The notes beneath the pieces were generated by a model that worked only from the letters and a program-made list of their open reading frames with translations, had not been told where the DNA came from and did no database searches. Source: Pirellulales bacterium (GTDB taxonomy: Bacteria > Planctomycetota > Planctomycetia > Pirellulales > PALSA-1355). From it: DNA of 64,000 nucleotides. Position numbers and translations under genes: made by a program. Positions 21,966-49,530 of this stretch are shown here, in pieces; the stretch's first letter is position 1, and each line of letters starts with the position of its first letter. The DNA lies in assembly GCA_963733035.1 (NCBI GenBank), contig CAVTBU010000004.1, positions 256,001 to 320,000 on the forward strand, written 5' to 3'.

Positions 21966-21981
21966 TAGTTGTATGTACAAC
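21966..21981. promoter_or_regulatory. Second putative MarR operator, immediately before the RBS of the fusion enzyme
   Basis: TAGTTGTATGTACAAC versus TAGTTGCATATACAA at 21461-21475. Confidence 0.65.
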
Positions 21982-21992
21982 AAGGAGCGGCC

Positions 21993-24455
21993 ATGAAGCT
22001 CGAAGATCATCCGACAGTGCAGCGGATTCGCCTCAAGACCGCACCTTCCGTTCCGCCCACCAAGGAGTCGCTGGATGCCGGATGGCTCAAGCAACTCGTC
22101 CTCGATGCCGGCGCTGTTGACGTGGGGTTTGTCGAAATTGGTAGACCCGCCTTGGACGATCAGCGGGAAGACATACTCAAGGCGTTCCCCCACACCAAGA
22201 CCCTAATCAGCTTCGTGGTTCGCATGAACCGAGAGGCGATTCGGACACCGGCTCGCTCGGTTTCCAACCTCGAATTCCACCATAGCGGAGAGGAGGTCAA
22301 TCACATTGCGCGGAGCGTGGTTCAGACTCTGGAAGACCGGGGAATTCGCGCCATGAACCCCGCGATGGGCTTCCCGATGGAAATGGGGCGGTTCCCCGGC
22401 AAGGTTTGGATCGTATCCCACAAGCCAGTCGCGGTGGCAGCGGGGCTTGGCATGATGGGCATTCACCGCAACGTGATCCATGAAAAGTTCGGCAATTTCA
22501 TTCTGCTTGGGACGATCCTGTTGGAAGCCGAGGTTTCAGAGTTCAGCCGGCCGATCGACTACAACCCATGCCTGGAATGCAAACTGTGCGTGGCCGCATG
22601 TCCTGTAGGGGCCATCTCGCCGGAAGGCAATTTCAACTTCTCGGCCTGCTATACCCACAACTACCGCGAGTTCATGGGCGGCTTCACCGATTGGGTCGAG
22701 CAAGTGGCTGACAGCAAGAACTCCCGCGACTACCGTAGCCGGGTCAGCGATGCGGAGTCGGCATCGATGTGGCAGAGTCTTTCCTACGGGGCGAACTACA
22801 AGGCCGCGTATTGCCTGGCGGTCTGCCCGGCTGGAGAAGATGTGATTGGGCCGTTCCTTGCTGATCGGAAGGCCTATCTCAATGAAATCGTACGGCCCCT
22901 TCAAGAGAAGGAGGAGACGATTTACGTCACTAAAAACTCCGACGCCGAGGATCATGTCGCCAAACGGTTTCCCCACAAAACAATCAAGCATGTCGGCAAT
23001 AGCCTGCGGCCAAACTCCATCGAGGTTTTTCTTAACAGAATGCCGAACGCATTCCAGCCAGGCAAGTCGACCGGATTGAACGCTACGTACCACTTCACCT
23101 TCACGGGCCATGAACAGCGGCAGGCAACGGTCGTGATTCGGGACCAGAAACTCAGCGTGTACGAGGCGCATGTCGGACAGCCCGATCTGCACGTGACCGC
23201 TGACTCACAAACGTGGATCGGCTTTTTGAGGAACGAACGAAACGTCGTATGGGCCATTCTCCGGCGGAAGATTCGGCTCGCTGGCCCACTCAAACTGCTG
23301 GTCGCGTTCGGAAAGTGCTTCCCGAGCGCAGGTGGCCGACAGGAGCTGGTCGAGTTCGTACCGCAACCCTCCAAACTCAGGGGCGGGCCTGCGCCCTACG
23401 TGAAAAATGACCCAGTTACCCGAGAAACCCGCTGGCGTGGCAAGTTCACGCTCTCGGAGGTTGTTGACGAGACTCCCGAGGTGAAGACCTTCCGCTTCGT
23501 TCCTCCTAGTGGCGGGGCAATCCCCTTCGAGTACCTGCCTGGCCAGTTCGTGACGCTCCACGTTGCGCCTCGGGGCATACCGACCAAACGTTCCTATACG
23601 ATCGCGTCGTCGCCCACATGGCGCGACCGGATCGAGATCACGGTGAAACGCGAAGGTCAGGGACTAGTCTCGCGGTGGTTGCACGACGAACTGAAGATCG
23701 GGGACGAGGTCGAGATCGAAGCGCCGAATGGGACCTTCACCTTCAACGGCAATGAGGCGGACCGAGTGGTACTGATCGGCGGCGGCGTAGGAATTACGCC
23801 TCTGATGAGCGTAGTGCGTTATCTCACCGCGACGAACTGGCCGGGCAAGATGCACTTAATTCTCGGCTTTCGGTCGCCGCGAGACTTCATTTTTCGAGAG
23901 GAACTGGCCGAACTCCAGGCACGCAACTCCAATCTCAGCGTCACGATCACCATGAGCGGTCCGGAAGACGAGCCGTGGTCGGGGCGCGTCAGGCGAATCG
24001 ATGCGACCCTGCTCACTTCGACCGTGCCTGAACTCGCGACACATCGCGTGCATGTATGCGGGCCACCGCCAATGATGGACGCAGTCAAGACTGCGCTCGT
24101 TTCGCTCGGCGTCCCCCATGCTCAAGTCAACACCGAGGCGTTCGGAACGATCAAACGCGATCCCTCCGCAAAGGATGCCGGATCAACGGAGATCGCGGGC
24201 AAGGCTTTCTTCCGGGCTTCCGGCGTGACCGCACCGGTTCCGGTCGATGCAACGATACTCGACGCGGCCGATACGGCCGGCGTCGTCATCGACAACGCCT
24301 GCCGTTCCGGCACATGCGCATCCTGCCGCGTCAAGCTGGTCTCGGGCCAGGTGACGATGGCCGTCGAGGATGCGCTGACCGATCAAGACAGAGTCGAGGG
24401 TTACATCTTGGCCTGCCAGGCCAAGATCCAGGGCGATATTGAAGTCGACGCTTGA
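21993..24455 (+). CDS. QueG/reductive-dehalogenase-like 4Fe-4S domain + SCP2 + FAD/NAD(P)H FNR + 2Fe-2S ferredoxin fusion
   Basis: SHKPVAVAAGLG..G, CLECKLCVAACP, YCLAVCP; SCP2-like YHFTFTG...PDLHVTADS; RSYTIAS, GGGVGITP, VCGP, TEAF; CRSGTCASC...LACQ; AAGGAG RBS. Confidence 0.85.
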   Translation: MKLEDHPTVQRIRLKTAPSVPPTKESLDAGWLKQLVLDAGAVDVGFVEIGRPALDDQREDILKAFPHTKTLISFVVRMNREAIRTPARSVSNLEFHHSGEEVNHIARSVVQTLEDRGIRAMNPAMGFPMEMGRFPGKVWIVSHKPVAVAAGLGMMGIHRNVIHEKFGNFILLGTILLEAEVSEFSRPIDYNPCLECKLCVAACPVGAISPEGNFNFSACYTHNYREFMGGFTDWVEQVADSKNSRDYRSRVSDAESASMWQSLSYGANYKAAYCLAVCPAGEDVIGPFLADRKAYLNEIVRPLQEKEETIYVTKNSDAEDHVAKRFPHKTIKHVGNSLRPNSIEVFLNRMPNAFQPGKSTGLNATYHFTFTGHEQRQATVVIRDQKLSVYEAHVGQPDLHVTADSQTWIGFLRNERNVVWAILRRKIRLAGPLKLLVAFGKCFPSAGGRQELVEFVPQPSKLRGGPAPYVKNDPVTRETRWRGKFTLSEVVDETPEVKTFRFVPPSGGAIPFEYLPGQFVTLHVAPRGIPTKRSYTIASSPTWRDRIEITVKREGQGLVSRWLHDELKIGDEVEIEAPNGTFTFNGNEADRVVLIGGGVGITPLMSVVRYLTATNWPGKMHLILGFRSPRDFIFREELAELQARNSNLSVTITMSGPEDEPWSGRVRRIDATLLTSTVPELATHRVHVCGPPPMMDAVKTALVSLGVPHAQVNTEAFGTIKRDPSAKDAGSTEIAGKAFFRASGVTAPVPVDATILDAADTAGVVIDNACRSGTCASCRVKLVSGQVTMAVEDALTDQDRVEGYILACQAKIQGDIEVDA

Positions 24456-24466
24456 GGGGGTAGTTC

Positions 24467-25451
24467 ATGGGGTTCGGATTATTCGCCCTTGCGTTCGTTG
24501 GCTCAGCCGTCGGACTGTGGCTCGTATCCCAGGTCACGGAAGCGCTGCGCCCCGTCCCGCAAACACCCGAGACCCTGCGCTGGGCTCCGAATATCCCGAT
24601 CGGCTACCTTGATATCGGCGGCTGCAAACTTCGTTACATCAAGGCCGGCCGGGGGCCGAATCTCGTGCTCCTCCACACCCTGCGCACCCAACTCGATCTC
24701 TTCGAGAAGGTCGTGCCGGAACTGGCTCGCCAGTTCACAGTCTACGCGCTCGATTATCCCGGCCACGGTTATTCGGACATTCCCGAAGCGCAGTACGATG
24801 CCGAATTCTTCGCCCAGTCCGTCGCGAAGTTCCTCGATGTCCTCGATCTTCACGACGTGACGCTCAGCGGTGTGTCCATCGGCGGCGCAGTCGCCCTGAT
24901 TTTGGCCGGCCAGCGAAACCCGCGAATTGCCCGGGTGGTGGCGATCAACCCGTACGACTACGCCAAGGGTCGCGGGATGGCGCGCAGCTCGCCATTGGGG
25001 TGGCTGATCACAGCAGCCTCGGACATTCCCCTAGTCGGTGAAACGATCATGCGCTTGAGAAATTTCGCGATCATGCGGGCCGTTCTCCAGGGTGGCGTCG
25101 CGAATCGCGAGAGCATCCCGCGCGCTTCTCAAGGAAATGTACCTCGTTGGCAATCGGCGCGGCCATTACCGAGCCTTTATCCGCTTGCTGCGTCAGTCGG
25201 CGAGCTGGGAAAAAGCCACCGAATCGTACAAAAACATCAGTCTCCCGGTGCATCTCGTCTGGGGCAACAAAGATTGGGCCAGGCCCGACGAGCGCGAGCA
25301 CGATCGCAGCCTGATTCCGAGGGCCGAGATGCACACCGTGGAAAATGGCGGGCACTTCTTACCGCTCGATCGGCCGGATGCCGTGGTCGATCTTCACAAA
25401 CGCATCGGGGCTGGTTCCGACGGATGTTCCGGCGGCAAAATCATCGACTAA
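24467..25451 (+). CDS. Alpha/beta fold hydrolase with N-terminal TM/signal segment, one frameshift near 25125
   Basis: LVLLHT, YALDYPGHGYS, GVSIGG nucleophile elbow; second frame LVWGNKDW...GGHFLPLDRP. Confidence 0.82.
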
Positions 25452-25577
25452 CTCTGAGAGTGCACTAATGCAACTACGGCGTTGCGAATTGCATCCGGCA
25501 AGCGGTTCCAGCCGCTAATCACGCCCTGCAGATCAGCGTCATTCAATGCCGATTCGAGCCATTTGAGGCGACCCGTT

Positions 25578-38742: not shown

Positions 38743-39408
38743 CTAGACGCGCAGCCAGGAACTACTGCGGGTCTGGCGGATTTCGCCGAGAATGCGATGG
38801 GTGATGGCCATCTCCACCAACTCTGCCAGCGACCGGGTTTGCAGCTTTTGCATAATGGCGGCACGACGCATCTCGACCGCCCGTTCTGAGATTTTCAACT
38901 TCGACGCGATCACCTTGTTCGGAGTGCCGGCCAAAAGCAACTGCAACGTTTCCTGTTCGCGTATCGTAAGTCGCCTGATCCGCTCGTCGATCGTCCCATA
39001 CTCCGATTGCTGCCGACGCCATTTGGCGTCCAGCGCGAGGGCTTTCTGAACGCGGTCGAGCAACAGCTCGCGCTCGAATGGCTTTTCCAGAAACTCGATA
39101 GCTCCGGTTTTCATGGCAGCCACGGCCATCGAGACGTCCGCGTGAGCCGTGATGAAAATCACCGGCAGTCGCTTGCCCTCGCGAATGAGTTGCTCATACA
39201 GCTCAAGACCATTCTGTTGGGGCATCTTGACATCGAGCACCAAGCACCCCGGCATGGAGGGATCATAGTACCGATGAAAGCTTTCCGCCGACGGAAACCC
39301 GCTCGCGACAAACTTCATTGCCCTAAGAAGCGCCGTCAGGGAGTCCAGCATTTGGCAGTCGTCGTCAACGACAAATACAGTCGGTCGATTGGTTGGCTTG
39401 GGAAACAT
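38743..39408 (-). CDS. FixJ/TtrR-type response regulator
   Basis: VFVVDDD, CLVLDVKMP, AIEFLEKP, LT.RE...NKVIA..L.ISERAVE.RR. Confidence 0.9.
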   Translation of the reverse strand: MFPKPTNRPTVFVVDDDCQMLDSLTALLRAMKFVASGFPSAESFHRYYDPSMPGCLVLDVKMPQQNGLELYEQLIREGKRLPVIFITAHADVSMAVAAMKTGAIEFLEKPFERELLLDRVQKALALDAKWRRQQSEYGTIDERIRRLTIREQETLQLLLAGTPNKVIASKLKISERAVEMRRAAIMQKLQTRSLAELVEMAITHRILGEIRQTRSSSWLRV

Positions 39409-41050
39409 GGATTGCAGATCGTGGTAGACAGAAGCTGACGACAGCACCGCCGATGTTGCGATTGTCGCCCCACAATCGGCCATGATATCGATCGAGTATG
39501 GTACGACTGATGGCCAGGCCCATGCCTAGACCTTCCTGTTTGGTTGAGAAAAACGGAGCAAATGATTCTTCCGCGGAACCGGTTGGGAAACCAGGTCCCG
39601 TATCCGCGACTTCCACAAACACATTTCCGGCCGCGGCGTAGGTACGGATGTCGATCCGACGTTGCTTGCGCGGGTATTCCGTCAACGCCTGTGCCGAGTT
39701 CTGCACTAGATTGACCAACACCTGTTGGATCTCAAGTGGCTCGGCCATGACCGATGTCGCGTTGATACACAAGCGTACCGTTAGCTGGACATCGGCCTGT
39801 TCGAGTTGGGGGCGGCAAAGTTCGCACACCTCGCGAACCAAACCGTTGAGTTCGACGAGGGTCCCCCCGCCCGCTCCGGTTCGCACGAAGTTCCGCATAC
39901 GCCGTACGATCTGGCCGGCCCGCAACGCAGCCCGTTTCAACTGCGCGAGGGTCACACGTGTCTCGGCAACGTCGAGCGTGCCGTTTTCCGCCGACAGTTC
40001 GAGCACGTCGGCGTAGTTGGTGATCGACGCGAGCGGCTGATTGATCTCGTGCGCTAACCCGGTGGCCAGTTGTCCCAGCGCCGTGACGCGCGAAGCGTGC
40101 GCGAGCCCTGCCGAAAGCTCGCGCATCCGCTTCTCGGCAGCTTCGCGTTCGGCGATTTCGTGTTCCAATGCGCGATTCGCCTCGACAAGCTCGCCGGTGC
40201 GCTCGATCACTCGCGTCTCCAACGCGTCACGCGCCTCGCTCAACAGCTCTGCGGTCACGCGGTGTTGCGACTCGCTCTCGGAAAGCTTAGCGATTTGTTG
40301 TCGGATCAGGTTTAGCGCCGGCTGCAGAACGACGAAATAAACACCAATCAACAATCCGAGTACGGCCAGCATCGCGGCCACACCACACCAGCGCAGAAAG
40401 TCGACTTGCCGACGCGACGACGCTTCAAGCATGTCCACGACGCGTTCCATCCGCTCAAGATACAGCGGCTCTGCGGCAAGAACTGTATCCAAATCCGCCT
40501 GTGTCGCGGGGTCCCTCGGCGCGTCGATGGGCGACGCCGAGGCGGCGATCCGGCCGGCCGCTAGTCGAATGGCCTGCAACTTCGGTTCAAGCGCTAGCAA
40601 AGCCGACTCAATTTGGTCATCGGCGACGGGCTCCAAACCCAGTGTCGCGCTACCTTCGAGCAGCCCTTGATGGGCCGCGCTCCACTCGTCAATCGCGATC
40701 GTGAGCTGTTCGCACCGCGTCTCTCGTTCGTCTGCATCCGAATGAGTCGCCAGGGCAATTGCGTTCTTCGCGATCTTCTGACTAAGCATCCGCTGCCGAC
40801 CGGCCACGTTGATCGCCGGCGCATAGAAATTCAGACGGACTAGCTGCGGCTGAATAATTGCTTCGTCGACGACCACCAAGAGTGCCACCGCCAGCAGAGC
40901 CAACAGATAGCGACGCGAAAGCAAACGCACCAGTGCGAGCGGATCGGTTGGCGACGCGACTACTTTCAGGCAGCGGACGGTCGTCGAACGTGGGGTTTCG
41001 GTGCTCTGCGATGTGCGCATCCCCAAGGCATGTAGAAAACCGCGTTCCAT
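39365..41050 (-). CDS. Sensor histidine kinase with a NarX/NarQ-type (P-box) periplasmic domain and a FixL-type transmitter
   Basis: APAINVAGRQRMLSQK P-box after TM1; LAHEINQPL, QQVLVNLVQNS, DTGPG, FFSTK, GLGMGL; start uncertain. Confidence 0.87.
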   Translation of the reverse strand: MERGFLHALGMRTSQSTETPRSTTVRCLKVVASPTDPLALVRLLSRRYLLALLAVALLVVVDEAIIQPQLVRLNFYAPAINVAGRQRMLSQKIAKNAIALATHSDADERETRCEQLTIAIDEWSAAHQGLLEGSATLGLEPVADDQIESALLALEPKLQAIRLAAGRIAASASPIDAPRDPATQADLDTVLAAEPLYLERMERVVDMLEASSRRQVDFLRWCGVAAMLAVLGLLIGVYFVVLQPALNLIRQQIAKLSESESQHRVTAELLSEARDALETRVIERTGELVEANRALEHEIAEREAAEKRMRELSAGLAHASRVTALGQLATGLAHEINQPLASITNYADVLELSAENGTLDVAETRVTLAQLKRAALRAGQIVRRMRNFVRTGAGGGTLVELNGLVREVCELCRPQLEQADVQLTVRLCINATSVMAEPLEIQQVLVNLVQNSAQALTEYPRKQRRIDIRTYAAAGNVFVEVADTGPGFPTGSAEESFAPFFSTKQEGLGMGLAISRTILDRYHGRLWGDNRNIGGAVVSFCLPRSAIHVSQANQSTDCICR

Positions 41051-41263: not shown

Positions 41264-41356
41264 AATCGCACGGGTCGCGAGGAGGTGGGTACGGCGCTTG
41301 CTTCCCGCCGCCAGAACAACTTCCCGTCACCGAATAGCGTCGGAGCGATTCTGGAC

Positions 41357-42730
41357 ATGCAAACTAGCGGCAAGGCCACGCGAATCAGATTGTGCAACTT
41401 TTCTACCCCGCAGATGCGCGCGTTCCACATGTCGTGGTTGGCGTTCTTTCTATGTTTCTTCGCTTGGTTCGGCATTGCACCGTTGATGCCAATCGTGCGC
41501 GAGGAGATGGGGCTGACGAAGTCGCAGGTCGGTTGGTGCGTGATCGGATCCGTGGCGATTACTGTGCTGGCCCGGCTGTTCGTCGGCTGGCTGTGCGACA
41601 AGATCGGCCCGCGCCGAGCCTATGCTGGCCTGCTTGTGGCCGGATCGCTGCCCGTGATGGGCATCGCGCTCTCCAGTGACTTTCAGACGTTCCTCTTGTT
41701 TCGCGTGCTAATTGGCGCGATCGGCGCATCTTTTGTCATTACGCAGTACCACACTTCGCTAATGTTCGCCGGCAACTGCGTCGGTACGGCCAACGCCACG
41801 ACCGCCGGTTGGGGAAATCTCGGCGGCGGCGTGACGCAGTTCGTGATGCCGCTCGTTCTCGCCATGTTCGTCGGCGTGCTGGGATTCTCTTCGGCGGCCG
41901 GCTGGCGACTGTCGATGGTCGTAGCTGGCGTAGCCTGTGCTTTGACCGGCGCGGCGTATTTTATGCTCACGCAGGACACACCCGAGGGCGACCTGAAGCA
42001 GCTACGCGCCGCCGGTAAACTGGCCCCGTCGAAGGATGCCCATGGCGCGTTTCTGGAAGCTTGCCGCGACAAGCGCGTGTGGGCGTTGGCAATTATGTAC
42101 GGCGCCTGCTTCGGCATCGAGTTGACCGTGAACAACGTGGCCGCACTATACTTCGTCGACTACTTCGCCGCCTTTCAGGAAATGGAGACCATTCAGGCCG
42201 CCAAGTACGCCGGCCTGATCGCCGCCTCGTTCGGACTGATGAACCTGTTTGCCCGCACGCTTGGAGGCTTCTTCGGCGACAAATGCGGCGGCGTCTGGGG
42301 ACTCTCGGGCCGCGTCAAATGGCTGTTTGTCACCCTCTTCTTCGAAGGCCTGCTATTGATGCTGTTTTCGCAGATGAACGTCCTGGCGCTGGCAATCCCG
42401 GCGCTAGTCGTCTTCAGCCTCTTCGTACAGATGTCCGAAGGCGCGACGTTTTCCATCGTGCCCTTCGTGAATCGCAGGGCCTTGGGATCGGTGTCGGGAA
42501 TGGTGGGGGCCGGCGGCAATGCGGGGGCGGTAGCGGCCGGCTTTCTGTTCAAGGCCGAAGGGATTTCCTGGCCAACGGCATTCCTGGTCATCGGCGCGGC
42601 CGTGACCACGATTTCATTTCTGAGCTTCGCCGTCCGATTTGGCGAGGGAGCCGAGGCCGCGTTTGACCACCCATTCGAACCGTCCCGACGTCCCACCATC
42701 GCGTATCAGCCCGTCCTTCAGGAGTCCTGA
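41357..42730 (+). CDS. narK: NarK/NRT2 nitrate/nitrite MFS transporter
   Basis: MRAFH.SW..FF.CF..WF, GTANATTAGWGNLGGG nitrate signature, YGACFGIELT, NLFAR.LGG, GAGGNAG. Confidence 0.92.
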   Translation: MQTSGKATRIRLCNFSTPQMRAFHMSWLAFFLCFFAWFGIAPLMPIVREEMGLTKSQVGWCVIGSVAITVLARLFVGWLCDKIGPRRAYAGLLVAGSLPVMGIALSSDFQTFLLFRVLIGAIGASFVITQYHTSLMFAGNCVGTANATTAGWGNLGGGVTQFVMPLVLAMFVGVLGFSSAAGWRLSMVVAGVACALTGAAYFMLTQDTPEGDLKQLRAAGKLAPSKDAHGAFLEACRDKRVWALAIMYGACFGIELTVNNVAALYFVDYFAAFQEMETIQAAKYAGLIAASFGLMNLFARTLGGFFGDKCGGVWGLSGRVKWLFVTLFFEGLLLMLFSQMNVLALAIPALVVFSLFVQMSEGATFSIVPFVNRRALGSVSGMVGAGGNAGAVAAGFLFKAEGISWPTAFLVIGAAVTTISFLSFAVRFGEGAEAAFDHPFEPSRRPTIAYQPVLQES

Positions 42731-42748: not shown

Positions 42749-45584
42749 ATGGCTAACCCGGTCGAAGTCTGGAAGGCCGAAAAGCACGGGCTAGACGTGT
42801 GGACCGACGTGGAGCGCCACGCGGTCGCCGGCACGCCGATGAAGCAAATCGATACGGCCGACCTGGAGCGCATGAAATGGTACGGCTTCTTCTACCGCAA
42901 GCGCGACGAGCCTGGTCGGTATATGAACCGCATCCGTATCACGGCTAATGAAATGACCGCCGCGCAGGCCAAGGAGATCGCCCGGCTGGCCTATGAGTTC
43001 GGCCACGGCATTGTCGACGTCACCACCCGCGCCAACGTGCAGATTCAAGGGATTTCGATCGAGCGCCTGCCCGAAGTGCGCGAGCGGCTCGAGGCAGTCA
43101 AGCTGACGTCCAAGCAAACGGGCCACGACAACATCCGCAATGTCTTCGGCCACCCGTTCAGCGGACTCATGCCTGAGGAGCTGATCGACACTCGCGACTT
43201 GTGCCACCAGTTGACGGCGTTGTTTGTCGACAGCCGAGAGTACTCCGACCTGCCGCGCAAAATGAACATCTGCATGAACGGCACGAATGAGCACTCGGCG
43301 CATTTCTGGACGCAGGACATTAGCTATCTGGCCACGAGAACGGACAACGCCGAAGTGTTGTTTCGCGTGCTAATTGGCGGGACGCAGGGGCAGAACCCAC
43401 ATCTGGCGTGGCACTTGCCGGTGTTGGTGGCTCCGCATCAAGTTGTGGACGTGACTCGATCGATTCTCGATTTGTATCGAGCGAAGGGTACCCGGGACAA
43501 GCGCAGCGTGGCCAGGTTCTGTTTCTTGATGGATGCCATCGGCGTCCAGGGCGTTCTCGCCTGGCTGGCGCAAGATCTCGACTTTCCGCTGGTACCATGT
43601 CACCGCTCTCCCGCGCCCTCGCTGGCGCACGATGAGCTAGTCGGCTGGTTTCCGCAGGCCGATCGTCAAATGTGGACGATGGGATTGTGCGTTCCCTTGG
43701 GACGCATGACCTGGCAACAACTTGAGGGATTGGGAGTGTTGGCCGAGCGTTGGGGCGACGGTGGGCTGCGAACCACGCACGAACAAGGTATGGCGGTCGT
43801 CAACATACCGACCCGGCACAAACAAGCGGCGCTGACTGACGCCGCCGCATTAGGGCTGAGCATCCATGCCGATGCGCTGGATCGCAACACGATGGCCTGC
43901 ACGGGCAGCCAGTTCTGCAATATCGCGGTCACGGAAACCAAGGGGCACATGTTCCAGTTGCTGGAGAAGCTCCGCAAGAAGCAAGTTCGCCTGGAAGGCA
44001 TTCGCATTCACATGAGTGGCTGCCCTTCGAGTTGCGCAGCACTTCACGGCGGATATCGGATTGAAGGGCGTGCGGGTTCGGCGTTTGCTGGGCACGCGTG
44101 AAGGGTTCGACGTCTACCTCGGCGGCGGTATCGGAGACGGCGTACAGATGGGCCGTACGTTTCGACTCGGCGTTGACATCGATCAACTCCCCACCTTGAT
44201 CGAAGAAGTCGTCACGCAGTACTACCTGTCTCACAAGCCGGGCCAGACATTCAGCGCTTATTGGCGCGAACAACTTCCCGCGGACAGCTCCGTCAAAGTC
44301 TCGGACGACGATTTCAATCCGCCAATTTGGACCTGCGAGAAGTGCCGTCACGAGCATGTCGGCGTCGACCCGCCCGTCTTTTGTCCCTCGTGTGCTGGCC
44401 TGCGACGGTATTTCGCTCGGCTCGAAGATGCAGCTGACCGGAACGGGTCGTCCACCGAGGGGGAAGCTGCGGCTGCGGAAGGCCCTGCCCGCAGTGATGG
44501 ATTCGTGTTCGCCGCCGAGGAATCGTCGATACCAGAGGGTGCGGGATTGGATGTCAAGGTTGGCGGAAAAGAGCTGGCACTGTTTCGTGTCGGTGGCAAT
44601 ATCCACGCGATCGACGCGATCTGTCCCCATGAGGGCGCCCCGCTGTCGCAGGGTGCGCTACAAGAAGGAGTCGTCACTTGCCCGTGGCACGGTTGGACGT
44701 TCAACGCCTGCTCCGGTTGCAGCATCGATCCGCCCAACAACGATGTCGGCCACTACGATACGCTCGTCGAGGAGACAGGCGTGTACGTGAAAGTAACGTC
44801 CGAACGACTCGCGTCCAGGGCCGCGATGTCGGTACGCCGCGCCGTGAAGCCGGTCGAAGCGCTGCTGCGTCTCTCCCAGATCATCGACGAAGCGCCCGAC
44901 GTGCGGACGTTTCGATTTGACAATCGCGCCGGCGTGCTGCCGCTGGACTATCCCGGCAGATTCGTCAAAATTTGCGTGTGCGCCGAATCGCAGGAGGTCC
45001 GGCGCAGCTTCACCATTAGTTCGTCGCCCCATGAACGAGCGTTTGTCGACCTCACAATCAAGCGGAACCCGAGCGGCGTGGCATCGCAGTGGCTGTTCGA
45101 GCACGCTCGAACCGGCGACGAGTTCAAACTAAGCGGGCCGTACGGCGGGTTCTATTTCGACGGCGAACAGCATTGCGAGCCGCTGGTGCTCGTGTCGGCC
45201 GGCAGCGGCATCACGCCGATGATGAGCATCGCTCGTTGGTGGCGAGCCCAAGATCTTGAAAACCCGTGTGCGTTCTTCCATGGCGCGCGGACGGCCGACG
45301 ACATTTTGTTTCACGCCGAATGTACACAACTGGCCAGTGAGTCGGTCAACTTCGCATACCATGTGTCGTTGTCTTGTCCCAACGAATTCTGGCAGGGATT
45401 GAACGGTCGGCTTACCCCAGAAACCTTGATACGGCAAGTCCGTGAACCGATGCTATGCCGCTACTTCCTTTGCGGTCCCAATGATTTCATGGATTGCCTC
45501 CGCAATGGGCTGTCCGCGGCCGGCGTGCCAGCCCATCGAATCCACACGGAACAGTTCCACAATTCCGCCGCGGTCAAGGCATGA
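42749..45584 (+). CDS. nirA: Siroheme nitrite reductase (NirA-like) fused to rubredoxin-like, Rieske and FNR domains; one frameshift near 44035
   Basis: DVTTRANVQ, DNIRN, LPRK, ACTGSQFC...SGCPSSC/AQHFTADIG; CEKC...CPSC; CPHEG...CPWHG; RRSFTISS, SAGSGITP, LCGP, TEQF. Confidence 0.83.
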
Positions 45585-47317
45585 CTTCGCTTCCCATCAT
45601 CAATGTCGCGATCACTTCAGCGAGCACCTCCGGCGGCCACAAGGCCGAGCTCAGCGGCGAATTCTCGTTGGTTGAACTCTTGCTTCGCGAGCAGCAGGAC
45701 CTAACGGCCGTCGAGCGGTTCGCACGCCACCACGACACGGGCGCCTTTCCAGCAGCCGAGAAACAGTATCGTTCCTTGATGCCAGCCACTTCACCTGGGC
45801 CGGGCCAGCAATACGGGTTTGACGTTGCGCTTGACCGTTGCAGTGGCTGCAAGGCATGCGTCACGGGCTGCCACGTGTTGAACGGCCTTGACGAAGACGA
45901 GACCTGGCGCGACATCGGCTTGCTGGTAGGCGGAACGCGCTCGTCGCCGGTCGCGCAGCACGTAACCACGGCCTGTCATCATTGCCTAAGCCCGGCGTGC
46001 ATGACTGCCTGCCCGGTAAACGCGTACGAAAAAGACGCCCACACCGGCATCGTCAAGCATCTCGATGACCAGTGTTTCGGCTGTCAATACTGCACGATGG
46101 CTTGCCCTTACGAGGTTCCCAAGTATCACGCGGCCAAGGGCATTGTGCGCAAGTGCGACATGTGTGCCACGCGTTTGGCCGCCGGCGAGGCCCCGGCTTG
46201 CGTGCAGGCTTGCCCGCACGAGGCTATCTCCATCCGCTTGGTGGACGTGCGGGAGGTGATTGAGGACGCCGAGGCCGCGAACTTCCTGCCGGCGGCGCCG
46301 GATCCGCAAATCACGTATCCGACGACCACCTATCGAACGCGACTCGTATTTCCCCGCAATATGCTGCCGGTCGACTATTTCCAGGTGAATCCGCAACATC
46401 CGCATTGGCCGCTGGTCGTGATGCTCGTGCTAACGCAACTCTCGGTGGGTGCCTTTGCCGTGGGTATGGTGCTCGACGAAATTCTCCACGGCAGCCTGTC
46501 TGCCACAATGAGGCAGTTCCATGGTCTGACCGCGCTAGTATTCGGGCTCGTGGCAATGGCGGCCAGCACGTTTCACCTTGGCCGGCCTCAATATGCCTAC
46601 CGGGCGATTCTCGGATTGCGGCATTCGTGGATGAGTCGCGAGATCCTGGCGTTTGGACTCTTTGCCGCCTTGGCATGTACCTACGCCGGCGCGTTGATGC
46701 TGCCGGTGCCATGGATGCTGGGCCGTCGAGTGCTGCCGTGGCTCGGCATTGGCGTCGTGGCCGCGGGCGGCGCCGGGATCGTCGGATCGGTGATGATCTA
46801 TGCCACTCTCGGACGCGACTATTGGAGCTACACGCGCACCTCCCTGCGCTTTTTGCTCACGGCGGGCCTCCTGGGCACGGCCACGGCGTGGCTTACTGCC
46901 GCGTTGCTTTCCCTGGTGAATCCCTTAGTAGGAACGGAGGCAATCCTCGCGTCCGTGGGAAGGATACTCTGTCCAACGCTGTTGGTGCTGGCCTCGGTAA
47001 AGCTGCTCTGGGAGGCCTCGCTGCTCCGGCACCGGATGTCGCGCTCCATGACCCAGTTGAGACGCTCTGCGACGCTGATGACGGGAGAGCTGTCGAACTA
47101 TACTTTGGCCCGATTTGCCACAGGCCTGGCAGGCGGCATCGTGATTCCGGCAATCCTGCTCTGGAGAATGCGATCGGGAGACGCACCTGCCGATCCGGTC
47201 GCACTGGCGGCGCTAACGGCAGTCCTCTTTTCGGCCTGCCTGACCGGCGAGCTTCTGGAACGCTATCTCTTTTTCGCCGCGGTGGCCGCGCCGCGGATGC
47301 CGGGAGCCGTTCGCTGA
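45581..47317 (+). CDS. 4x[4Fe-4S] DmsB-like domain fused to a DmsC-like membrane anchor
   Basis: CSGCKAC..GC, CHHC..PAC..ACP, CFGCQYC..ACP, KCDMC...[13 protein letters not shown]...LTQLSVG, HLGRP, SWMSREI, ERYLFF. Confidence 0.87.
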
Positions 47318-49530
47318 TGGGATCAAATGATGCCAAACCGGGCTCTGGGCTCCTCGGCGTGGCCCGCACGGGACCGCTGACACGAGAGCTGCTGCTCGTG
47401 CCGGGCGACTTCGGACTGGGCCATGTTCCCGCTAAGGCGCAGCCAGATGCGACAACGCGCACAGTGTGCGGCTATTGCTCGACGGGCTGCAGTCTAGACG
47501 TGCACTTGAAGGATAATGCGGCGGTCGCGCTTTCGCCGACGGTCGACCATCCGGTGAACCTCGGCATGGCCTGTCCCAAGGGATGGGAAGCGCTTAGCGT
47601 CTTGCAGTCGCCAGACCGAGCCGGAACGCCGCTGTTGCGCACCGATGACGGGCCGCTGTCGCCAGTAAACTGGGAGCAGGCGGCAAACGCGTTCGTCGTG
47701 CAAATGAAGCGCATTCAGGCAGCCCATGGCAACGAGGCCATCGCTTTTCTCAGCACTGGCCAAATCGCCACCGAGGAGATGGCCCTGCTCGGGGCAGTGG
47801 CCAAGTTTGGCATGGGCATGGTGCACGGCGACGGCAACACGCGGCAGTGCATGGCCACTGCGGTGGTCGCCTATCAGGAATCGTTTGGCTTCGACGCGCC
47901 GCCATTTACGTATGAAGATTTCGAGTTGTCAGACGTCTTGGTCTTCGTGGGCAGCAACGTCTGCATCGCGCACCCGATCATGTGGGAGCGTGTGATGCGC
48001 AATCCGCACAATCCCGAAATCGTGGTGATTGATCCCCGCGCGACGGAAACCGCGATGGCGGCCACGCAACACCTTCCGGTGCGACCCAAATCGGACTTGA
48101 CGTTGCTTTACGGCGTCGCCAGGCTGCTCGTCGAGCGGGGCTGGATTCACGCGGAGTACATCGCCGCACACACCCACGAATTCGAGGCATTTCGAGAATT
48201 CCTGATTGCATTTCCGCTGGAGCGCGTCGCCGCGGAAACCGGGATCGCCGCCGGCAAGCTCGAGTGGCTGGCCCGCACGATCCACGAAGGGCAGCGTGTT
48301 TCATTCTGGTGGACGATGGGCGTCAATCAAAGCCACCAAGGAGTGCGCACCGCGCAGGCGCTGATCAATCTTGCGCTGATGACCGGCAATATCGGCCGGC
48401 CAGGCACGGGCGCCAATTCGATTACCGGGCAGTGCAATGCCATGGGGTCGCGACTGTTTAGCAATACGACGAATCTGCTGGGCGGTCGCGCGTTCGACGA
48501 TCGTGTACACCGCCGTGAAGTCGCCGACATCCTCGAAATCGACGAACGACGCATTCCGCGCAACAAGGGCTGGTCGTACGACCGCATCATGGAAGGAATT
48601 CTCGCTGGCAAGATCCGCGGCCTCTGGGTCATCTGCACGAACCCGGCCCATTCGTGGATCAACCAGTCGCAAGCCCGCGACATTCTCGACCGGCTTGATT
48701 TCCTCGTCGTGCAAGACATGTACACCACGACCGAAACCGCCGAAATGGCCGATCTAGTCCTACCCGCCGCAGGCTGGGGAGAAAAGGAAGGCACATTTAT
48801 CAACTCAGAGAGGCGAATTGGCTTGCACAAGAAAGTCGCGCATGCTCCAGGTGCTGCCCTTTCCGACTTCGCGATTTTCCAATTGTTGGCGGAGTATTGG
48901 GGATGTGGTGAGATGTTTCGCAAGTGGCAGTCACCCGAGGCCGTTTTCCAGATCCTCAAGCGCCTGTCGGCCGGCCGGCCGTGCGACTTCAGCGGGATCG
49001 ATGATTATCAGATGCTCGACGGCGCGGGCGGGATTCAATGGCCGTACCCAACTCAAGACCCGGACGATCGGCCGCAGCGCCGGCTGTTCAGCGACGGGCG
49101 ATTCTACCATCCGGACGGCAAGGCCCGGTTCGTGTTCGAAGAAACGCATGCGATGCCCGAGCAACCAAACGAACATTACCCATTCTTGCTGCTCACCGGG
49201 CGCGGTTCGGCCTCGCAGTGGCATACCCAAACCCGCACGGCGAAGTCCGCCGTGCTGCAAAAGCTCTACTGCCGCGACGCGTATGTTGAAATCGCGCCTG
49301 CCGACGCTTCGGAGCTCTCGATCGTGCGCGGTCAATGGGTGCGCATCTCCTCCCAGCGAGGAAGCATTCTCGCCAAGGCCGTGATCATGCCGACCGTGCA
49401 GCCCAAGCAACTCTTCGTGCCGATGCACTACACTCAGACCAACCTGCTGACCGACGCCGTATTCGACCCCTACTCTCGGCAGCCGGCATACAAAGCCTGC
49501 GCGGTAAGGATCGATGCCCTGGCGCACTGA
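47317..49530 (+). CDS. nasA: Cytoplasmic molybdo-bis-PGD nitrate reductase catalytic subunit (NasA/NarB-like)
   Basis: CGYCSTGC...[62 protein letters not shown]; no Tat motif. Confidence 0.9.

Follow-up and report, generated by a model that had tools for sequence, protein, structure and literature searches.

A NirA-rubredoxin-Rieske-FNR fusion in a Pirellulales genome: a probable NAD(P)H-dependent nitrite reductase whose gene is split at a GCGC site

Does a planctomycete encode a nitrite reductase that carries its own electron supply within a single polypeptide, and why does its gene appear broken in the middle? The question is raised by a 64,000-nucleotide stretch of DNA from a Pirellulales bacterium (assembly GCA_963733035.1, contig CAVTBU010000004.1, positions 256,001 to 320,000; hereafter the window, in whose own positions coordinates are given), where two overlapping open reading frames (ORFs) between 42749 and 45584 together encode a NirA-type core followed by rubredoxin-like, Rieske and FNR-type modules. 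The best explanation of our results, to which we assign a probability of about 0.7, is that a single gene here encodes an assimilatory nitrite reductase that would be driven by NAD(P)H through a chain of its own, and that the break is a deletion made in assembly.

One gene across two reading frames

The ORF list of the window gives ORF1 (42749..44101; 450 amino acids, frame 2) and ORF2 (44016..45584; 522 amino acids, frame 0) on the same strand. Their frames are offset by one base, they overlap by 86 nucleotides (nt), and ORF2 has an in-frame GTG at 44016, upstream of the break. In an alignment of full-length homologues, ORF1 corresponds to columns 1-431 (87% identity to P0001), and ORF2 picks up at ...AQHFTADIGLKG and runs to the homologue end (75% identity to P0001). 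The two halves meet between MSGCPSSCA and QHFTADIGLKG, within the second cysteine motif of the siroheme/[4Fe-4S] site, and apart from this junction both are intact, with no second defect over 2.8 kb.

DNA comparison locates the fault precisely. Where the related genome G016 reads AGCTGCGCGCAACAC, the window reads AGTTGCGCAGCAC and is therefore short by 2 nt of a (GC)3 run; its form TGCGCAG is TGCGC(GC)AG minus the bracketed GC, and restoring that GC yields TGCGCGCAG. The two metagenome contigs of related strains that bridge the break (X2 record 13 and X3 record 17, the latter with 55 differences over 888 nt) both have the GC put in behind 44033. Contigs of two more relatives start at 44034 and 44037, and their loose ends also encode an in-frame C-A-Q-H. 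At this position the frame is kept in every relative examined. The restored protein is (45581-42749+1+2)/3 = 945 amino acids long, and the alignment, the G016 DNA and the bridging contigs bear out a preliminary description of this locus, which had obtained a protein of about 945 residues by restoring a GC near 44035.

Homologues were collected with ORF2 as the query, keeping longer proteins only. The best 120 of the 164 matches, on which all counts of homologues below are based, are single proteins of 939-1116 amino acids, and each of the 120 contains PF01077, PF03460, PF00355, PF00970 and PF00175. Start-to-stop ORFs of 948-971 amino acids are intact in six genomes (G016, G028, G083, G158, G325 and G340). 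The stretch 42749-45584 is a single gene, and the architecture search that the preliminary description had proposed returns single genes rather than separate ones. The gene and its parts are as follows.

42749..45584, + strand: predicted nitrite reductase gene (NirA-rubredoxin-Rieske-FNR, 945 amino acids), split into ORFs 42749..44101 and 44016..45584 in this assembly
42749..44285, + strand: NirA core with two NIR_SIR_ferr/NIR_SIR repeats, from Pfam and motifs, including LPRKMN (K-x-N)
44033..44038, + strand: break site TGCGCA, with a GC of the (GC)3 run missing; relatives have TGCGCGCA, which gives the C-A-Q-H of the second siroheme/4Fe-4S motif
44334..44393, + strand: rubredoxin-like knuckle CEKC-x12-CPSC (ORF2 Cys107, 110, 123 and 126), preceded by W-x-
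44505..44792, + strand: Rieske [2Fe-2S] domain, CPH...CPWH (ORF2 C203, H205, C222 and H225)
44868..45503, + strand: FNR-type module, comprising FAD_binding_6 (44868-45152; RSFT) and NAD_binding_1 (45189-45503; GSGITP, CGP)

Pfam and motifs thus confirm the order of modules that had been read from the letters alone. In ORF1, Pfam recognizes NIR_SIR_ferr in two stretches and NIR_SIR in just one, since the break cuts the second repeat; intact homologues have two stretches of each. The cluster cysteine codons lie at 43898, 43916, 44021 and 44033, corresponding to C384, C390, C425 and C429 in P0001 numbering. The spacing of the knuckle, CxxC-x12-CxxC, is that of the rubrerythrin Fe(Cys)4 domain. 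The rubredoxin model RUBY_RBDX (PF21349; cut-off 26.5 bits) is exceeded by P0122 (27.0), P0136 (28.3), P0137 and P0182, gives 25.5 bits with the G028 homologue, below the cut-off, and is a precomputed match in 32 of the 120 homologues. For the Rieske domain, the label 'NirD-like' given to it earlier holds in that the NirD-type Rieske_2 model passes (37.2 bits; cut-off 27), but the general Rieske model PF00355 scores higher (73.4 bits; cut-off 20.3), and the NirD model TIGR02378 reaches 53.9 on P0001 against a cut-off of 74.65. FAD_binding_6 (50.2 bits) and NAD_binding_1 (47.7 bits) both exceed their Pfam cut-offs, and the solved structures closest to the FNR module are NADH-cytochrome b5 reductase, MmoC, NqrF and flavohemoglobin.

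The putative ligands are strictly conserved. All 120 homologues share the siroheme/[4Fe-4S] cysteines C384, C390, C425 and C429 (also present in the window), R170-K171-x-N173, the knuckle cysteines C530, C533, C546 and C549, the Rieske ligands C626, H628, C645 and H648, and the FNR motifs F756-T757, GSGxTP (G820, S821, G822, T824 and P825) and C910-G911-P912. This invariance indicates that all five cofactor sites are under selection.

Operon context and the source of electrons

Given this architecture, NAD(P)H would deliver two electrons to the FAD of the FNR module, and these would pass singly to the Rieske cluster, the rubredoxin-like centre and finally the [4Fe-4S]-siroheme site, where nitrite would undergo six-electron reduction to ammonium. 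Because electrons would be supplied within the polypeptide, no free ferredoxin should be needed. We infer the order of carriers and the activity, as well as the identity of the knuckle metal as iron rather than zinc and the choice between NADH and NADPH. In the window's family and in three fusions of other layout (P0125, P0137 and the NIRFU-like P0182), the knuckle comes immediately after the NirA core, and it stands directly before a rubredoxin-reductase-like flavoprotein in P0125, P0136 and P0137. On account of this placement between core and flavoprotein, we think that the knuckle is a true redox centre standing at the ferredoxin docking place.

The neighbouring genes provide the strongest clue to the electron donor.

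39365..41050, - strand: sensor histidine kinase, divergent from the cassette and narK, with a counterpart at the corresponding position in genome G001 (51% identity)
41285..42730, + strand: NarK-family nitrate/nitrite transporter of the major facilitator superfamily, first gene of the cassette (TIGR00886, 285.5 bits; cut-off 311.7)
45581..47317, + strand: 4Fe-4S dicluster protein (DmsB-like) fused to a DmsC-type membrane anchor (iron-sulfur-DmsC protein, FeS-DmsC), whose ATG overlaps the stop codon of the fusion gene (ATGA)
47317..49530, + strand: cytoplasmic NasA/NasC-like molybdopterin nitrate reductase, whose N-terminus is without a twin-arginine motif

The gene order narK, nitrite reductase, FeS-DmsC, nasA occurs in the window and six other genomes, and is Pfam-confirmed in three of the six. 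The FeS-DmsC protein is encoded in 21 of 41 genomes of the order, at 22 loci. Directly upstream of it stand this NirA fusion at five loci, a same-strand NirB-NirD fusion at five and a divergent NirBD at one; the other 11 have neither this fusion nor NirBD within 1.5 kb. A NasA-like enzyme is encoded directly downstream at 22 of 22 loci. Its constant pairing with the DmsB-like/DmsC anchor fusion points to an assimilatory nitrate reductase that is tethered to the membrane and perhaps fed by quinols. The histidine kinase is a candidate nitrate/nitrite sensor for the cassette. Its copy in G001 has a PilJ-type N-terminal sensor domain.

Genome G001, which belongs to the same genus as the window's, is the most instructive comparison. 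Apart from the kinase, its flanking genes match those of the window at 62% (NarK), 64% (FeS-DmsC) and 69% (NasA) identity. In the slot between them (L051 5492-8590, G001:C56) lies a gene for a 1032-amino-acid protein of Pyr_redox_2, Rubredoxin_C, BFD, NIR_SIR and Rieske_2 domains, which is a NirB-NirD fusion. This protein has no BLASTP match to the window fusion at E 1e-5 except in the Rieske part, which is 28% identical over 123 amino acids. Because NirBD occupies the same slot, the NirA fusion would appear to fulfil the same function and to draw on a donor of the same type, as a non-orthologous replacement. A search of the window's genome found neither NirB nor a further nitrite reductase-type siroheme enzyme. 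This absence and the replacement of NirBD are together the strongest evidence we have, and they argue for an NAD(P)H-dependent role in nitrite reduction. The self-contained role without an external donor that had been proposed for this protein is thereby supported by context.

Might the Rieske-FNR tail instead serve mainly the adjacent nitrate reductase, or both enzymes, rather than act as a private chain to the siroheme? The gene always adjoins nasA, and the Rieske domain has similarity of the NirD/NasG type (Rieske_2, 37 bits; NirD, 53.9 bits). Gates and colleagues are said to have found in 2011 that the Rieske protein NasG serves nitrate reductase in Paracoccus. However, NasA has its own conserved partner in FeS-DmsC at all 22 loci, the fusion is to NirA and not to NasA, and flavoprotein tails likewise occur within single polypeptides in algal NIRFU-like proteins and in other NirA fusions. 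We consider this arrangement unlikely; moreover, it is compatible with our preferred explanation, a nitrite reductase with its own NAD(P)H-driven chain, and does not exclude it.

Origin of the break and identity of the substrate

If the fusion is a single functional gene, then the missing GC needs an explanation. We compared 277 intact ORFs of at least 300 amino acids, drawn from 400 kb of G003 (a genome of the same genus), with the whole genome to which the window belongs (G000). Matches at 55% identity or more were obtained for 162 of them; 110 are whole, 25 are partial, and 27 change frame at abutting query positions. In the reciprocal search (475 ORFs of G000 against the 400 kb of G003), frame changes were seen in 4 of 118, and these are mirrors of the same events. 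The distinct junctions number 23 per 223 kb of aligned coding sequence, or about one per 10 kb, and fall on five contigs (C5, C6, C7, C8 and C10; for example C7:47527-47542 and C8:275069-275071). A GCGC lies within 9 nt of 20 of the 23 junctions, versus 4.66 ± 1.96 under random placement (maximum 12 in 2000 trials); the corresponding counts for other tetranucleotides are 10 for CGCG, 5 for GGCC and 7 for CCGG. Ten junctions could be aligned as DNA. In seven of these, the sole gap is a loss of 1-2 nt from G000 at or beside GCGC or CGCG, and none of these seven clean gaps is an insertion; the remaining three show several gaps.

A second test, free of any reference genome, asked how often codon usage switches frame at GCGC sites and at control tetranucleotides, and was used only as a measure of genome-wide enrichment. 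Switches occur at 944 of 16915 GCGC sites (55.8 per 1000) versus 6034 of 162315 control sites (37.2 per 1000; chi-square p 1e-32), an excess of about 315 events genome-wide. On C4, the contig of the window, the counts are 75 of 1450 versus 478 of 13491 (p 0.003).

Related assemblies seem to suffer from errors of this type as well. The copies of the fusion gene in G007 (L006 ~2440, G007:C45) and G024 (L004 ~2820, G024:C46) are frame-broken at other places, likewise at or next to GCGC, and neighbouring genes, including that for FeS-DmsC, are also spread over several frames. Within the family, marker completeness is 95-100% for fragmented assemblies. For few-contig assemblies it is 91% and 82% (one contig each), 61% (six contigs), 84% (nine contigs) and 92% (G000, ten contigs). 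We infer that the latter are long-read assemblies with uncorrected indels. Taken together, these patterns make it highly probable that the nirA break is an assembly artefact, as its 2-nt loss fits the class of 1-2 nt deletions at GCGC.

The alternative is that the deletion is genuine, as a recent pseudogene or a strain polymorphism, in which case the strain would make a truncated NirA fragment of 450 amino acids and would not assimilate nitrite by it. The break is present in the sequence as given, and slippage at short GC repeats can occur in living cells. No public sequencing run contains this strain (the best has 0.15 of the sampled words), and no RNA run is listed. In addition, 16 window ORFs drawn from overlapping same-strand pairs have complete Pfam domains or no family, and none could be shown to be broken, so the local error rate may be below that of C7 and C8. 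An attempt to gauge this local rate by synteny found no G003 match at 1e-50 for the window's HMG-CoA reductase and NasA. Nevertheless, roughly one in six well-conserved genes of this genome is frame-broken, mostly at GCGC (20 of 23 junctions) and in the clean cases always by deletion, a pattern that cannot credibly be biological. The nirA break belongs to this class and is accompanied by no second defect. Moreover, the rest of the cassette is intact, and a search of the genome found no other nitrite reductase-type enzyme. A genuine 2-nt loss is therefore improbable, and the frameshift, which the preliminary description named, together with homologues as separate genes, as a ground for refutation, is most likely not biological, given the genome-wide pattern of GCGC deletions.

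The enzyme might also be a sulfite reductase rather than a nitrite reductase, and sulfite had been put forward as an alternative substrate. One source names the Maioricimonas homologue 'Sulfite reductase [ferredoxin]', and the NirA of Mycobacterium tuberculosis, which despite its name is in fact a sulfite reductase, is a fairly close match (8e-48). However, the core, which spans residues 1 to about 510, matches the ferredoxin-nitrite reductases of tobacco and spinach far better, at E values of 1e-78 to 1e-70 (residues 3-490 at 1e-78), than it matches maize sulfite reductase (4e-21) or E. coli SiRHP (3e-14). The two substrate types are separated by K-x-N in nitrite reductases versus K-x-K in sulfite reductases, and LPRKMN of the core aligns with LPRKWN of the tobacco enzyme, at positions that we take to be K224/N226 of plant nitrite reductase. 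The gene lies between a NarK transporter and nitrate reductase at seven of seven loci and swaps with NirBD. Furthermore, the second of the two NIR_SIR proteins found in the genome carries LPRKFK, the K-x-K of the sulfite reductase type. By these sequence criteria the core is nitrite-type, and a role as sulfite reductase is very improbable.

Expression by programmed frameshifting or as two assembling polypeptides, for which one might cite the GTG of ORF2 ahead of the break and the retention of all four cluster cysteines by ORF1, is hardly credible when relatives are in frame here, when the G007 and G024 copies are broken elsewhere, and when the cut falls inside CxxxC-A-Q-H and splits the second NIR_SIR repeat.

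Several other results weigh against our interpretation of the gene and its product. The reference-free test has a high background, at 34-41 switches per 1000 control tetranucleotides, which includes true gene boundaries (7542, 47288 and 62537), and it did not flag the nirA break itself, because the downstream frame call there is ambiguous. A search of the genome for a C5 cytosine methylase (PF00145), to which the GCGC errors might have been traced, found none. With regard to the protein, RUBY_RBDX scores 16.9 bits on the window (E 0.0044), a score below the cut-off, so that a structural, zinc-binding knuckle is conceivable. Most FNR-type reductases that supply electrons to Rieske ferredoxins have a plant-type [2Fe-2S] domain, which the fusion lacks. 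The NCBIfam equivalog model for ferredoxin-nitrite reductase, NF007125, gives 377.3 bits on P0001, under its cut-off of 594. Finally, our literature search found no assay of any family member and no biochemistry.

Relatives and known systems

Fusions of NirA cores were sought among 1.84 billion representative proteins. Two are full-length representatives of the window's family (P0121 and P0122). Other layouts with Rieske or rubredoxin modules are NirA-Rub-Rieske without FNR, Rieske-NirA-Rub-Pyr_redox_2 and NirA-Rieske-Rub-Pyr_redox_2, and those with flavoproteins are NirA-Rub-FNR, NirA-FNR and Pyr_redox_2-BFD-NirA. Five further proteins (P0167, P0191, P0140, P0169 and P0257) include NasA-NirA (1272 amino acids), formate/nitrite transporter-NirA (769 amino acids), cNMP-binding-FAD_binding_6-NirA (1253 amino acids) and NirA with rhodanese domains.

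In a FastTree phylogeny of 115 NirA cores (local support values only, midpoint root for drawing), the window's family and P0124, P0126 and P0125 form one clade with local support of 100 and a long stem. Within it, P0125, at 45% identity, is the sister of the window's family (clade support 100). A different clade, with support of 100, holds the NIRFU-like P0174 and P0182, and this separation of the cores indicates that the algal and planctomycete fusions arose independently. Other clades, too, contain independent fusions of a NirA core with an FNR-type or rubredoxin-reductase-type flavoprotein. Named sources among the homologues are Pirellulales, Planctomycetaceae, Maioricimonas, Thalassoroseus and Thalassoglobus, with the cultured species Maioricimonas rarisocia (P0017) and Thalassoroseus pseudoceratinae (P0054) among them, and their database labels range over 'Rieske 2Fe-2S domain-containing protein', 'ferredoxin-nitrite reductase', 'sulfite reductase [ferredoxin]' and 'precorrin-3B synthase'. 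The gene is patchy among genomes and common in metagenomes; copies, intact or broken, occur in 4 of 40 relatives from the order and in 4 of 400 other genomes of the phylum, all four in one family (4 of 20).

How different is this protein from established systems? Like the ferredoxin-dependent NirA of plants and cyanobacteria (PDB 3b0g and 2akj), it has a monomeric two-repeat NIR_SIR_ferr/NIR_SIR core with CxxxxxC...CxxxC and K-x-N, but it has about 440 additional C-terminal residues with three redox modules, and its donor is predicted to be NAD(P)H. With NirBD it would share the path from pyridine nucleotide through FAD and Fe-S to siroheme in one enzyme, as well as a Rieske-fold part and, at five loci, the same slot. 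In NirBD, however, the flavoprotein is N-terminal and of the Pyr_redox_2 (glutathione-reductase) type, and is accompanied by a BFD-like [2Fe-2S] domain and a single NIR_SIR repeat. Pfam finds neither Pyr_redox_2 nor the BFD-like domain in ORF1, ORF2 or the intact homologues, and they do not qualify as NirB. Judged by domain content, the window fusion differs from NirBD in every module but the Rieske fold. E. coli CysJI (PDB matches 1aop and 6c3x) likewise has a siroheme/[4Fe-4S] hemoprotein fed from NADPH via an FNR-type module, but it consists of separate subunits, uses FMN and FAD, has no Rieske or rubredoxin, and acts on sulfite (K-x-K).

The closest parallel is found in algae. Cuvelier et al. 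2017 (PMC5344333) describe NIRFU of Micromonas commoda as a plant-type nitrite reductase with a C-terminal rubredoxin and an FNR/cytochrome b5 reductase-like domain, and report it from Micromonas, Ostreococcus and Bathycoccus; we found 'NIRFU' as a protein name in this source only. The Mamiellophyceae protein (Micromonas commoda XP_002507511) resembles the window fusion in its NirA core, in a knuckle at the same position and in the FNR/cytochrome b5 reductase-like domain, but it has no Rieske domain, has an N-terminal extension like a transit peptide, and its core belongs to the other NirA clade. P0182, which has the NIRFU layout, aligns with P0001 at 28% identity over the core and knuckle, and at 24% over the FNR module. 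It is probably algal, to judge from the Atlas, where a Chlorophyta cluster with NIR_SIR and FAD_binding_6 ranks second to the query's own cluster. Derelle and colleagues are said to have first noted the Ostreococcus fusion in 2006. The metagenome fusions P0125, P0136 and P0137 also combine a NirA core, knuckle and/or Rieske domain and NAD(P)H flavoprotein in one chain, but their flavoprotein is Pyr_redox_2 with Rubredoxin_C, not FNR, and their domain order differs.

The preliminary description had presented the protein as a third design beside NirA and NirBD. This goes too far, as NirB is itself a self-contained siroheme enzyme that runs on NAD(P)H, and NIRFU and other NirA-flavoprotein fusions exist. 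By sequence comparison, two things are particular to the window's family: a Rieske domain placed between rubredoxin and FNR, and its standing as a separate bacterial clade. The design is not entirely without precedent. A literature search, which did not reach subscription journals and supplements, found no description of a bacterial NirA-Rieske-FNR fusion. Planctomycetes have been proposed as donors of the eukaryotic NAD(P)H-dependent nitrite reductase (PMC6400420).

Elsewhere in the window, a gene at 21969-24455 (+ strand) encodes an 828-amino-acid protein with 4Fe-4S ferredoxin motifs, SCP2, FAD_binding_6, NAD_binding_1 and a C-terminal plant-type 2Fe-2S domain, and is followed by a gene for an alpha/beta hydrolase (24467-25468).

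For G000 as a whole, an assembly with hundreds of 1-2 nt deletions linked to GCGC means that frameshifts, split genes and pseudogenes called from it are suspect until reads have been seen. A broader evolutionary picture can be offered tentatively. Planctomycetes may hold a clade of self-sufficient NirA enzymes, independent of NIRFU, in which a rubredoxin-like centre and a Rieske domain are joined to a swappable flavoprotein (FNR here, the rubredoxin-reductase type in the sister protein P0125), and which has displaced NirBD in one operon. With a cytoplasmic NasA there on a DmsBC-type anchor, the nitrate step might be quinol-fed and the nitrite step NAD(P)H-fed, a division that, to our knowledge, has not been described for assimilatory pathways.

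If our explanation of the locus is correct, one polypeptide would hold five redox centres (FAD, Rieske [2Fe-2S], Fe(Cys)4, [4Fe-4S] and siroheme) and would convert nitrite to ammonium with NAD(P)H as its sole electron source. Such an enzyme would be a compact object for studies of six-electron catalysis and for engineering nitrate assimilation free of ferredoxin. NirA cores would have become dependent on pyridine nucleotides several times, via different add-ons. The architecture also helps to interpret the Planctomycetes genes that are now labelled merely 'Rieske domain-containing protein' or 'ferredoxin-nitrite reductase'.

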